Shown here piece by piece: positions 51,276-54,633 of a stretch of DNA of 64,000 bases (positions within the stretch are counted from its first letter, which is position 1; each line of letters starts with the position of its first letter). The notes below the pieces were generated by a model. The model ran no database searches. It saw nothing but the letters and a program-made list of their open reading frames with translations, and was not told where the DNA came from. A program made the translations under genes and the position numbers. Source of the stretch: Gammaproteobacteria bacterium (lineage in GTDB: Bacteria; Pseudomonadota; Gammaproteobacteria; CAJXQU01); NCBI GenBank assembly GCA_965238175.1, contig CBDEGZ010000003.1, positions 1,536,001 through 1,600,000 on the forward strand. Reading direction: 5' to 3'.

Positions 51276-51441
51276 ATCGAGATCCTTTGTAATGTTTTGC
51301 TTGGAAGAAATGCACAAACAACGCTATATATAGGTTTATTTCTCTGAGTCTATTTTTAAAGTTTGTTAATTTGGTGTCTTTAGTAATGAAATGAAGATAG
51401 ACGCTCCAGAGTTTAGCAATAAATGGGGTAGAATCCACCTT

Positions 51442-51729
51442 ATGAACTCACAAACAGACAAACTGGATCAAATATCCTGTTGGATCTACAGAAGTAATAG
51501 AAAAGAAGAGATGTACCTTTACCTTAGTAACAAAGATGATTTAGAAGAGGTGCCTGACGATCTACAGAAAAGACTTGGGGAACTGGATTTTGTTATGCAG
51601 TTGGAATTGTCTGAGCAACGTCAGTTAGCCAGAGCAGATGTCTCTGAGGTAATGAAAGCACTCTGTGACGAAGGGTATTATCTGCAAATGCCACCAAAAT
51701 TAATTCCTGATCTGCACTTTGGTGATTAA
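51442..51729 (+). CDS. YcgL domain protein
   Basis: CWIYRSNRKEEMYLY, VPDDL, LARAD, GYYLQMPP. Confidence 0.9.
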   Translation: MNSQTDKLDQISCWIYRSNRKEEMYLYLSNKDDLEEVPDDLQKRLGELDFVMQLELSEQRQLARADVSEVMKALCDEGYYLQMPPKLIPDLHFGD

Positions 51730-52612
51730 TAAGCTTTCAAATTTGATCGAGCAGTTTTTAGACACGGCCTGGTCTGAACAAGGTTTGAGTGATAACACAC
51801 TAAGTTCATATCGATCAGATCTGACATTTTTTGCGAAATGGCTTATTAGCAATGATAAGCAGGTCAAAGAAGTCGGTTGGCAGGATTTGTTGAGTTTCCT
51901 AGATCATTTTGAAAAGGCCTCTCCGCGTAGTCGCGCACGTCGTTTGACCAGCTTGCGACGATTTTATCGATTTTTGATCCGTGAAGAATTGGTAGAAGAT
52001 GATCCTACCCGTCGACTTAAAACTCCTAGAGCAGGGCGCAGCCTTCCTAAAACTTTATCAGAAGATGAGGTTGAGGCTTTATTAACAGCTCCAAATATAG
52101 AAAAAACTTTAGGTTTACGTGATAAAGCTATGATTGAATTGCTTTATGCGACGGGATTACGTGTGTCAGAATTAGTTAATCTGACCATGCAAGAGATTAA
52201 TTTAAACCAAGGTGTTGTACGAATTACCGGTAAGGGCGATAAGGAAAGAATCGTTCCAGTAGGTGAGGAAGCTGTTCATTGGTTGGAAAGTTATCTGGAA
52301 GAAGCACGTTCTGATTTACTCAAAGGTCAAGTTTCGGATGCCTTATTCCCAGCTCGGCAGGGAAAGCCAATTGGCCGACATGCGTTCTGGCACCGAATTA
52401 AGCAACATACGACAACTGCAGGCATTGATAAATCGATATCACCTCATACATTACGACATGCTTTTGCCACGCATTTACTAAATCATGGTGCAGATCTAAG
52501 AGTGGTTCAAATGCTTTTAGGTCATCGAGATATTTCAACAACACAGATCTACACACACGTTGCACAAGCAAGATTACAAAATTTACACGCAGCCCATCAT
52601 CCAAGAGCATAA
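51719..52612 (+). CDS. xerD: Tyrosine recombinase XerD
   Basis: GLSDNTLSSYRSDL, LYATGLRVSEL, SPHTLRHAFATHLLNHGADLR, TTQIYTHV. Confidence 0.95.
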   Translation: MVINKLSNLIEQFLDTAWSEQGLSDNTLSSYRSDLTFFAKWLISNDKQVKEVGWQDLLSFLDHFEKASPRSRARRLTSLRRFYRFLIREELVEDDPTRRLKTPRAGRSLPKTLSEDEVEALLTAPNIEKTLGLRDKAMIELLYATGLRVSELVNLTMQEINLNQGVVRITGKGDKERIVPVGEEAVHWLESYLEEARSDLLKGQVSDALFPARQGKPIGRHAFWHRIKQHTTTAGIDKSISPHTLRHAFATHLLNHGADLRVVQMLLGHRDISTTQIYTHVAQARLQNLHAAHHPRA

Positions 52613-52649: not shown

Positions 52650-52662
52650 ACGCCGTTTTTAA

Positions 52663-52716
52663 CCCTTGCCTCACCGAAAATTAAAGCGGGAGGCTATAAA
52701 CCGAGAGGGAATATAG
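52663..52716 (+). promoter_or_regulatory. S6:S18 ribosomal-protein leader (autoregulatory RNA)
   Basis: GCCTC/GAGGC and CCG/CGG stems plus a CCG motif next to the RBS, directly upstream of rpsF. Confidence 0.6.
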
Positions 52717-53460
52717 TTGAGACACTACGAAGTCGTTTTTCTGGTCCACCCTGATCAGAGCGAGCAGGTTCCTGCCATGCTTGACCGTTACCGAACAATT
52801 ATTGAAGTCGATGGTGGTCAAATTCACCGCCTTGAAGACTGGGGCCGTCGTTTGTTAGCATACCCAATCAATAAGGTTCACAAAGCCCATTACGTTATGA
52901 TCAATATAGAGTGTGATCAAAAAGCACTCGATGAATTGAACAGTGCTTTTCGTTTTAATGATGCGGTTATCCGTAATTTAGTTATGAAACGCGATAGTGC
53001 GGTTACTGATCCTTCATTCTTGGCCAAGAGCAAGGAAGAAGAGGACGAACGTGCTTCAAAAGAAGCTGCAATTGCCAGAGCTAAAGAGGCTGAAGCAGTT
53101 GCTAAAGCTGAAGCCGCCACCGCAGCTAAAGCCGCAGCGGATGCTCAAGAAGATCCTACTGCTGAAGAGGCTGTCGCTGTTAGTACAGATGCAGAAGCAC
53201 CTGCTGCAGAAACTTCAACTAAAAAGGAAACTTCAACTAAAGAACCTAGTGATGCTGAGGTTATATCAACAGAAGATCACGAACTGAATTACGTACTCAA
53301 GAAGTATGGTAAACGCCAGACTGCTGCTAATCGCAAGAAATTTGTAACGTTACTTGATGAGTGCAAGGCTGATGCAGATTATGCACCACATCTTCGTGAA
53401 CAATTTTATCGCTATATCGAAGACAAAAAAGCCTTCGATATTATGGAAGATCTAGGTTAG
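52717..53460 (+). CDS. rpsF: 30S ribosomal protein S6 with long linker and extra C-terminal domain
   Basis: [18 protein letters not shown]...[12 protein letters not shown]...KAHY; TTG start; 247 aa versus the usual ~110-140. Confidence 0.95.
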
Positions 53461-53477
53461 ATCAGAGGAGAAGTAAT

Positions 53478-53705
53478 ATGGCACGTTATTTTCGACGCAA
53501 ACGTTTTTGCAAATTCACCGCTGAAGGTTATACCGAGATCGACTATAAAGATCTAAACACGTTGAAGGCATATATTTCCGAAACAGGAAAGATTATGCCA
53601 AGTCGTGTTTCCGGAACTAAAGCTGGTTATCAGCGACAACTAAAAACAGCGATCAAGCGAGCACGTTTTCTTGCATTGGTTCCATATTGTGACTCTCACG
53701 AGTAA
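53478..53705 (+). CDS. rpsR: 30S ribosomal protein S18
   Basis: [24 protein letters not shown]. Confidence 0.98.
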
Positions 53706-53727
53706 AGATTAAGCAGGTAGAAAACAC

Positions 53728-54633
53728 ATGAAAGCATTGGCCACGTATATTCTACGAGGTCCAATACAGGCGGCGGGTGTTATTGGCTTATTTGCCAGTA
53801 TCGGTTGGATTTTTCCACCATTGCTTATCATCAGTTGCGCTGCATTAGCATTGGTTGTGCTTAAGCAGGAAGCGAAAACTGGATTTTTAGTGATGTGTGG
53901 CGCAGTTGTATTTTGTGCTTTCATTTCTCAGATTGGATTTGGATCTTTACTGCTCGCTTTATATACAGTCATCGTACTGTGGCTGCCGATCTTACTGTTA
54001 GCCAATGTACTACGGCTGACACAATCGCAATCAAGTGCATTGGTGGCAATGATGATAGCGTCATTGATGTTTGCACTAAGCATTCGTTTTTTTAGTGGTA
54101 ATATTGAAGGGTTTTGGCAACAGAGCTTGACTCAAAATGTTAATGAAATTCCTTTGCTCGCAAATGCGGAGAATCAGTCAGAAATAATCAACGCACTTTC
54201 TGTCATTATGAATGGTTTTGTCGCAGCAATGCTAGGAATTATGCTAATGGTGAGTTTACTTGTTGCCAGATGGTGGCAAGCTATACTTTTTAATCCCGAT
54301 GGGTTTGGAGAGGAATTTCGCAAGATACAGTTGCCTGTTTTGATCACTACGCCTCTGCTTGTATGTATGCTTTTAGTAGCATTGGTTGAAGTTTCGATAC
54401 CACCTTATGGGTTCTTGCTTGATGTACTGGTGATCGGTTGTGCAATATTAATGTTTCATGGTTTAGCCGTTATACATTTTTTTGTGCACAAAAAGAGATT
54501 AGCAAAAGGTTGGCTGGTCGGGGTTTATATATTTTTTGTCTTAGCGGCCGTCTATGTTTTTAGTTTGCTGACAATGTTGGCGGTAACAGATAGCTACTCA
54601 GACTTTCGTAAGTTACGTACCAAGGCTGTTTAA
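53728..54633 (+). CDS. DUF2232/YybS-like membrane protein
   Basis: Polytopic; ARWWQAILFNPDGFGEEF; conserved rpsR-rplI position. Confidence 0.8.
   Translation: MKALATYILRGPIQAAGVIGLFASIGWIFPPLLIISCAALALVVLKQEAKTGFLVMCGAVVFCAFISQIGFGSLLLALYTVIVLWLPILLLANVLRLTQSQSSALVAMMIASLMFALSIRFFSGNIEGFWQQSLTQNVNEIPLLANAENQSEIINALSVIMNGFVAAMLGIMLMVSLLVARWWQAILFNPDGFGEEFRKIQLPVLITTPLLVCMLLVALVEVSIPPYGFLLDVLVIGCAILMFHGLAVIHFFVHKKRLAKGWLVGVYIFFVLAAVYVFSLLTMLAVTDSYSDFRKLRTKAV

Follow-up and report, generated by a model that had tools for sequence, protein, structure and literature searches.

The 64,000-nucleotide stretch of a Gammaproteobacteria bacterium genome analyzed here (contig CBDEGZ010000003.1, positions 1,536,001 to 1,600,000 of the forward strand; hereafter the window) contains an rpsF gene whose product, ribosomal protein bS6, is extended far beyond the S6 core. 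A single open reading frame (ORF) encodes the core, a long linker, and a conserved C-terminal domain (residues 178–247) that belongs to a family without a name. An initial annotation of the window had proposed that S6 is fused here to an additional domain of about 70 amino acids, and the fusion is borne out. We posit that the domain could be a binding module that a swinging arm tethers to the 30S platform, a functional reading on which we are evenly divided between acceptance and doubt.

The N-terminal part of the protein matches S6 over the whole length of the core. Residues 3–91 align with positions 1–90 of the 90-position Pfam model Ribosomal_S6 (PF01250; E = 3.1e-29, 101.4 bits against a gathering cut-off of 27), residues 1–93 match the NCBIfam equivalog TIGR00166 (E = 2e-31, 108 bits against a cut-off of 42.9), and AlphaFold2 predicts a beta-alpha-beta-beta-alpha-beta core with a predicted local distance difference test (pLDDT) score of 69–92 by block, mostly 83–92. 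PF01250 has a single match in the 97.7%-complete genome, which therefore encodes no other S6 and no canonical paralogue; the rpsF of the window is the organism's single, functional S6 gene.

The C-terminal domain is constrained to the same degree as this core. An alignment of 17 fused proteins (A1) has 30 invariant positions from D179 to M243. The ratio of nonsynonymous to synonymous substitution rates (dN/dS) is 0.047 over the 70 codons of the domain (11 of the 21 pairs across 7 species, dS being saturated in the other 10) and 0.051 over the S6 core (20 of the 21 pairs from 7 species), so that purifying selection on the C-terminal domain is as strong as on the S6 core. Modeled on its own with AlphaFold2, from an alignment of the window domain and 30 stand-alone relatives, the domain is predicted to form three main helices and a short fourth (residues 16–25, 32–47, 56–66, and 68–71 of the 76-residue query) with a mean pLDDT of 90.5 and a predicted template modeling (pTM) score of 0.73. 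The invariant positions, the selection, and the predicted fold all agree with the initial description of the tail as an ordered, helical domain. The domain of the window is mildly acidic, with an isoelectric point (pI) of 5.3 (family median, 6.6), and many polar positions are conserved in the wider family (D179, E189, N205, K/R at 199–200 and 206, H225, R227, and Y231). This conserved polar pattern speaks for a specific binding surface.

The linker that joins the two parts shows the opposite behavior, with 46–76 residues that differ in length and sequence among species and hardly align. It is acidic as a whole (pI 4.5) and falls into two parts: residues 106–140, in which 15 Ala, 9 Asp or Glu, and 7 Lys or Arg make up most of the 35 positions and which are predicted to form one long helix, and residues 141–177, which are predicted to be disordered and are the most variable stretch of alignment A1. 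In the AlphaFold2 model of the full-length protein the domain keeps a pLDDT of about 77–87. The pTM of 0.39, with a pLDDT below 50 over residues 140–176, means that, as modeled, the S6 core and the C-terminal domain are beads on a string without fixed mutual packing. The initial annotation had read the linker as Ala/Glu-rich and the frame as ending 17 bp before rpsR, both correctly, and had supposed that the added protein is tethered, with which the flexible linker of the full-length model agrees.

A 15-bp direct repeat at 53209 and 53227 had been taken initially to mark the fusion joint. The repeat exists: the unit GAAACTTCAACTAAA occurs in two exact direct copies (53209–53223 and 53227–53241) where the linker runs out, 6 nt short of the C-terminal domain, and an exact repeat of 15 nt is expected by chance in 781 nt with a frequency of about 3e-4 by an arithmetic estimate. 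Its reading as a fusion joint did not stand. Because the nearest relative (96–97% identity in the domain) has only one ETSTKE unit and the repeat is in frame, it is a recent in-frame 18-bp slippage duplication, found in one genome only, within a hypervariable linker. Synonymous divergence between the fusion-bearing species ranges from 0.5 to above 2, and the fusion is therefore far older than the repeat, which we reject as a relic of the fusion event.

The same fusion was found well beyond the window. A search of a 5.8-billion-protein collection with residues 170–247 returned 22 proteins, all 22 of which also carry PF01250; these fused S6 proteins are 206–255 amino acids long. Among 41 related genomes, the domain is present in 7, which are all the genomes of the window's own genus (g1, own genome included), and in none of the 34 genomes of other families. 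The frames at all 7 matches of genus g1 are open over 229–287 codons without stops, and the genome of the window contains no second copy of the domain (1 match only). A profile search of 401 genomes across the class gave 6 matches, namely 3 in genus g1, 2 in stand-alone genes of about 70 codons, and 1 in a genome of GTDB family f173 (G178), whose rpsF, an open frame ahead of rpsR and of a 297-amino-acid membrane ORF, encodes a 228-amino-acid S6 that carries the domain as well. Because the fusion is common to the whole genus and to one genome of a second GTDB family, it is probably old. The fused domains are 68–100% identical among themselves, whereas the best stand-alone match to a fused domain reaches no more than 56%, a pattern that suggests a single fusion event.

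The domain also exists apart from S6. When 1.84 billion cluster representatives were scanned exhaustively with phmmer, 72 proteins matched at E ≤ 1e-3, 15 of them at E ≤ 1e-10, and the matches span query residues of about 7–74. These comprise 30 stand-alone proteins of 64–79 amino acids (alignment A2), 2 short pieces, 1 S6 fusion, and 39 longer proteins. A word-index search had missed the shorter proteins, a failure of sensitivity, and it was the HMMER scan that found the stand-alone forms; free relatives of about 70 amino acids thus exist, as expected from the initial proposal that a small stand-alone protein had been tethered to the ribosome. The members share a motif, D-x8-9-E-x-HEL-x-Y-[VIL]-L..K..K[RK]..-x2-N[RK] ... 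F[KR] ... PH.R..FY.Y, that is also present in the window domain, and in alignment A2 D8, E18, and L23 are invariant while N34 and Y60 are conserved in at least 90% of the sequences. Of 10 clusters checked for a database name, 9 are nameless and the tenth is called "30S ribosomal protein S6".

Among the 39 longer members, 20 have a C-terminal peptidoglycan-binding OmpA domain (PF00691). In these proteins the family domain is placed at the extreme N-terminus, followed by a single-pass membrane helix and the periplasmic OmpA domain. One of the 39 is an S6 fragment, and no other ribosomal protein with the domain is found among the 72 matches; a profile search among longer proteins gave 23 matches, of which 22 are S6 proteins and 1 is an OmpA protein. 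The initial suggestion to look for the domain on other ribosomal proteins thus led back to S6 alone. A metagenomic protein of 1072 amino acids (P0024) has a signal peptide, FixG_C/Big_9 Ig-like domains, membrane helices, and three tandem copies of the domain at its C-terminus. The linkers between these copies are near-identical and lysine-rich; a second protein (P0027) has 2 copies of the domain, and a third (P0091) shows a weak P-loop ATPase match beside it. Judged by topology, the domain is cytoplasmic in every architecture found.

A scan for a sequence pattern, with each prokaryotic species represented by one genome, yielded 27 loci, 5 of which are S6 fusions, all in metagenome-assembled genomes labeled Gammaproteobacteria bacterium or uncultured proteobacterium. 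The remaining loci, stand-alone or fused to OmpA, come from Spirochaetota, Leptospiraceae, Methylomonas, Methylococcaceae, Gallionella, Chromohalobacter, Enterobacter, Kosakonia, and others, and a tblastn search of phages gave no match to the domain. From these occurrences the family is evidently widespread but sporadic. In an Enterobacter sp. (L026, 3968–4843) and a Kosakonia sp. (L028), a stand-alone member of 69 amino acids adjoins a 208-amino-acid ORF that looks like a recombinase of the resolvase type, and a helicase-like ORF of 671 amino acids lies nearby, as read from the translations only; this locus may be a mobile element.

Comparison with named families and solved structures did not assign the domain. 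For the window domain and 31 family members, the Pfam, NCBIfam, and PHROG models gave chance-level matches only and no name. The best PDB match by sequence has E = 0.3, a Foldseek search of the PDB gave nothing at E ≤ 0.001 (best E = 1.4), and VIA-align against 48,161 chains gave a best Z of 4.2 and no chain at Z ≥ 5. The closest candidate is DUF2853 (PF11015), whose Pfam model has weak matches in 3 of the 31 family members (best E = 8e-4); the window domain itself has no match to that model at E ≤ 10, and the gathering score is not reached. An hhalign comparison of columns 9–69 of A2 with columns 31–94 of a DUF2853 profile, built from six sequences taken from genomes, gave E = 8.4e-4 over 58 columns at a probability of just 23.8%. 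The crystal structure of a DUF2853 protein (2pyq, Jannaschia Jann_4075) ranks 6th of the 48,161 chains with Z = 3.8 and a root mean square deviation of 5.1 over 67 residues, which is at noise level for small helical folds. The two families share the pattern D..(L)VS...EL..V...KKLG ... R..FY.L, and the alignment of the domain family covers the C-terminal half of DUF2853 alone. A distant relationship of the domain family to this half is possible but not established. The genome of the window has a separate, true DUF2853 gene outside the window (contig C3 of that genome, 2814523–2814813; 117.6 bits), and in a sample of 151 genomes from the class DUF2853 was found in only 5, of which 2 belong to the window's genus.

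Three further candidates were rejected. The best ESM Atlas cluster is named "Z1636-like protein", with a score of 0.86 that lies below the 0.9 level, and the name is a lead only; no DNA match is found in E. coli genomes. DUF3606 (PF12244) matches 3 of the 31 members (best E = 0.012) over their N-terminal 23 residues only and has no match in the window domain. The NCBIfam model NF051451 ("30S ribosomal protein S2, sunset domain variant") matches the low-complexity linker at residues 100–183 (E = 0.1, 11.7 bits against a cut-off of 710), and the C-terminal domain itself has no match to it.

The place of S6 next to S18 on the platform of the small subunit is part of established ribosome structure. 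In an excerpt of one source, S6 is located with S18 and S21 on the 30S platform, beside the 3′ tail of the 16S rRNA (PMC9976891). Because S6 sits with S18 at this site, each ribosome of these bacteria would bear a single copy of the domain, and the arm of 46–76 residues could let it sweep the platform and the mRNA-exit side. Swinging-arm systems combine a conserved head with an arm that varies freely, and this pattern, together with the conserved polar positions, is the reason why we favor a tethered binding module. The tether would hold a binding partner at high local concentration near the platform; candidates for this partner are soluble factors and sites on the ribosome or the mRNA. Most likely, the fusion would have originated by capture of a free-standing gene of the family between rpsF and rpsR.

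Several observations weigh against this tethered module. The mild acidity of the domain disfavors generic RNA binding. Stand-alone members have no recurrent neighbor linked to translation: among 89 neighboring ORFs from 24 loci (L015, L016, L028, L029, and L031 were left out as near-duplicates), no family occurs more than 3 times (71 of the 89 ORFs). In family f173 the domain is present in only 1 of 4 genomes, and in the sister genus g292 (3 genomes, 71–88% complete) S6 is 147–166 amino acids long and has a plain acidic Thr/Ala/Glu tail directly before rpsR; the domain can therefore, it seems, be dispensed with or replaced. Two histories would fit this distribution, an old fusion that was lost in the sister genus or a transfer of rpsF or its 3′ part. 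The S18 of G178 is 84–88% identical to that of the sister genus and 77% identical to that of g1, and its S6 core is 74–78% identical to the sister genus and 75–77% to g1. Three loci of genus g292 in family f173 (L049, L051, and L052) show that a long low-complexity S6 tail occurs even without a folded domain. We also considered whether the domain substitutes for the hibernation factor RMF and rejected the idea: RMF was not found in the genome of the window, but it was found in only 2 of 41 relatives and its absence is uninformative. Genes for short HPF, S21, and a RimK-type ATP-grasp protein are present in the genome, and PF08443 also matches in 13 of 14 control genomes and is thus not specific.

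Other explanations of the fusion have to be weighed against a tethered binding module. The trivial one, that two genes were joined by an error of assembly or sequencing or that the tail is unconserved read-through, is refuted for all practical purposes. The same continuous frame is present in 8 independent genomes, without the stop or frameshift that the initial annotation had named as a possible refutation, and in the 22 database proteins, and the dN/dS of about 0.05 speaks against read-through. In the contigs of relatives from two other studies the linker is replaced by stretches whose lengths depart from it by 15, 120, and 123 nt, each divisible by 3. Sequence support across the linker, a check that had been proposed at the outset, comes from Logan contigs of two runs of one sample that cover 52650–53720 with 0 differences, although the window may itself derive from this sample. 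No RNA dataset is listed for the rpsF stretch, and the one run guessed to be RNA holds contigs of relatives only. Nothing favors an artefact, given that the one discordant record, a gene call for an identical protein (P0002) that begins at Met21 (227 amino acids) and omits the conserved MRHYE N-terminus, leaves the 3′ end unaffected; this start (52717–52779) looks like a start-codon miscall. An alternative with biological content is that the domain has a role unrelated to translation and that S6 supplies strong, growth-coupled expression, with cleavage of the linker perhaps releasing the domain. The very different carriers of the family (OmpA membrane proteins, the Ig-domain envelope protein, and the protein with the weak P-loop ATPase match), the long disordered linker that should be easily cleaved, and the sister genus that lacks the domain are all compatible with such a passenger. 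We nevertheless rate it as quite unlikely, given that the fusion stays in frame through linker changes of many lengths, that an active free domain ought to have a gene of its own, of which the genome contains none, and that the sequence ahead of the domain offers no ATG, GTG, or TTG in frame (read by eye).

A reading closer to translation gives the domain a ribosome-binding activity of its own, directed at the platform or at a neighboring ribosome. Free members of the family would then be small ribosome-associated proteins, the forms with a transmembrane helix and OmpA would anchor ribosomes to the envelope, and fusion to S6 would turn this into a permanent association that serves, for instance, the modulation of initiation or ribosome storage. 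Membrane-anchored ribosome binders are known, such as E. coli YqjD/ElaB/YgaM. The conservation of the S6 fusion across more than 8 species, the predicted cytoplasmic position of the domain on a large anchored structure in all architectures, and the strongly basic flanking linkers of P0024, P0027, and P0030, which would suit RNA surfaces, agree with this proposal. Against it, the domain lacks basic character, acidic linkers occur in other members fused to OmpA (e.g., P0032), the stand-alone loci show no conserved neighborhood with translation genes, and S6 is the sole ribosomal carrier, with all but one of the 23 longer matches being S6 proteins. On balance we hold direct ribosome binding by the domain to be possible but doubtful. 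Its most far-reaching form, in which the whole family, free proteins and transmembrane-OmpA heads alike, docks on the 30S platform, wall-anchored forms tether ribosomes, and the built-in copy on S6 regulates initiation or storage, would seem to us unlikely. Finally, the domain might self-associate, forming homo-oligomers that bring ribosomes together pairwise or in clusters, as happens in hibernation, or that dimerize the OmpA-type proteins. Tandem copies in P0024 and P0027 could be read in this way, and OmpA-like proteins commonly act as dimers; however, nothing in the models supports self-association, for the domain is confidently predicted to fold as a monomer and a homodimer prediction gave no support (score 0.07 against a mark of 0.42), a result that counts neither for nor against binding. 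We consider self-association very improbable.

The features of the rpsF locus are collected in the table. The gene row of the window is a YcgL-domain protein, a tyrosine recombinase (Phage_integrase and SAM-like domains), rpsF, rpsR, a DUF2232 membrane protein, rplI (L9), and dnaB. The stop codon of rpsF is TAG (53458–53460), the spacer between rpsF and rpsR contains no priB-like ORF, and rpsR begins with ATG. The initiation codon of rpsF, TTG here, is GTG at the same codon in 6 related species and ATG in family f173. The similar membrane ORF behind rpsR in G178 occupies the equivalent place to the DUF2232 gene. Directly 5′ of rpsF (51391–52612), the gene for the YcgL-domain protein (E = 8.7e-31) overlaps the start of the XerD-like tyrosine recombinase gene (Phage_integrase, E = 2.6e-58) by 11 nt.

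Table. Features of the rpsF–rpsR region, in positions of the window.
Feature	Position	Strand	Remarks
GAGAGGG Shine-Dalgarno-like box of rpsF	52703..52709	+	7 nt 5′ of the TTG; consensus match only
rpsF, whole gene (bS6 core, linker, and C-terminal domain)	52717..53460	+	247 amino acids, 27.8 kDa, TTG start
bS6 core, residues 1–100	52717..53016	+	Pfam, TIGR00166, AlphaFold2, dN/dS
Ala/Glu/Lys-rich linker part, residues 106–140, one long predicted helix	53032..53136	+	AlphaFold2 pLDDT 53–69
Acidic Ala/Thr/Pro/Glu-rich linker part, residues 141–177, predicted disordered	53137..53247	+	pLDDT <50 over residues 140–176; pI 4.05
In-frame tandem duplication, two exact 15-nt copies	53209..53241	+	period 18 nt; copies 53209–53223 and 53227–53241
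Conserved C-terminal domain, residues 178–247	53248..53457	+	unnamed family of about 68 amino acids
GAGGAG Shine-Dalgarno of rpsR	53465..53470	+	inside the 17-bp spacer; read from sequence
rpsR (bS18), ribosomal partner of S6	53478..53705	+	Pfam PF01084, E = 2.6e-23
Multi-pass membrane protein between rpsR and rplI	53728–54633		301 amino acids; Pfam DUF2232, E = 1.9e-9

Bacterial ribosomes are usually treated as uniform, and lineage-specific extensions of ribosomal proteins are known, with functions that are almost all unknown. The S6 extension described here is an autonomous conserved domain on a long arm and not a mere disordered tail, so that it can be excised, produced on its own, and put to use as bait. 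Through its link to the ribosome, the S6 fusion offers a first functional lead on a nameless family of small proteins and heads of membrane proteins from several phyla; as the single indication of this kind, it hints that the family may work at the ribosome. Should the domain indeed recruit a factor or dock at the platform, the principle of the L7/L12 stalk would have a counterpart on the small subunit.

By its core, the protein is a canonical bS6 (RpsF): the match covers the whole core, the gene is single-copy, and rpsF lies directly before rpsR in a cluster with rplI and dnaB. It differs from canonical bS6 in about 150 extra residues that end in a folded, conserved domain with the C-terminus ...MEDLG. 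The S6 of E. coli, for comparison, has a short acidic C-terminal tail with a run of Glu. The initial annotation had taken such short acidic tails to be the norm, which needs correction: in the part of Xue et al. (2022) that bears on this point, extensions of ribosomal proteins, long S6 extensions included, are described as common throughout bacteria, with unknown functions, and the S6 of Mycoplasma pneumoniae is described as having a long C-terminal extension with secondary structure (PMC9534751). As far as that part of the source allows a comparison, the two proteins are alike in having a long and partly structured C-terminal extension, and they differ in that the extension in the window ends in an autonomous globular domain that also occurs free and on unrelated carriers. 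Going by its name, the S2 variant of NF051451 is likewise a protein of the small subunit that has gained a C-terminal part. As a mechanism, though by analogy only, the arrangement resembles the L7/L12 stalk and the lipoyl arms of E2 enzymes, in which a globular domain is carried on an Ala/Pro/Glu-rich flexible arm of a large machine; unlike in those systems, with which there is no homology, the arm in the window is on the small subunit, and the weak matches of its linker to the sucB/E2 linkers in NCBIfam (E = 0.027–0.24) reflect similar composition. In the literature on S6 extensions and fusions, on DUF2853, and on the sunset domain we found no description of the C-terminal domain, and our claim extends to that literature only. 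What is new here is an S6 extension that terminates in an autonomous domain whose family, itself nameless, also includes free proteins and proteins of the envelope.

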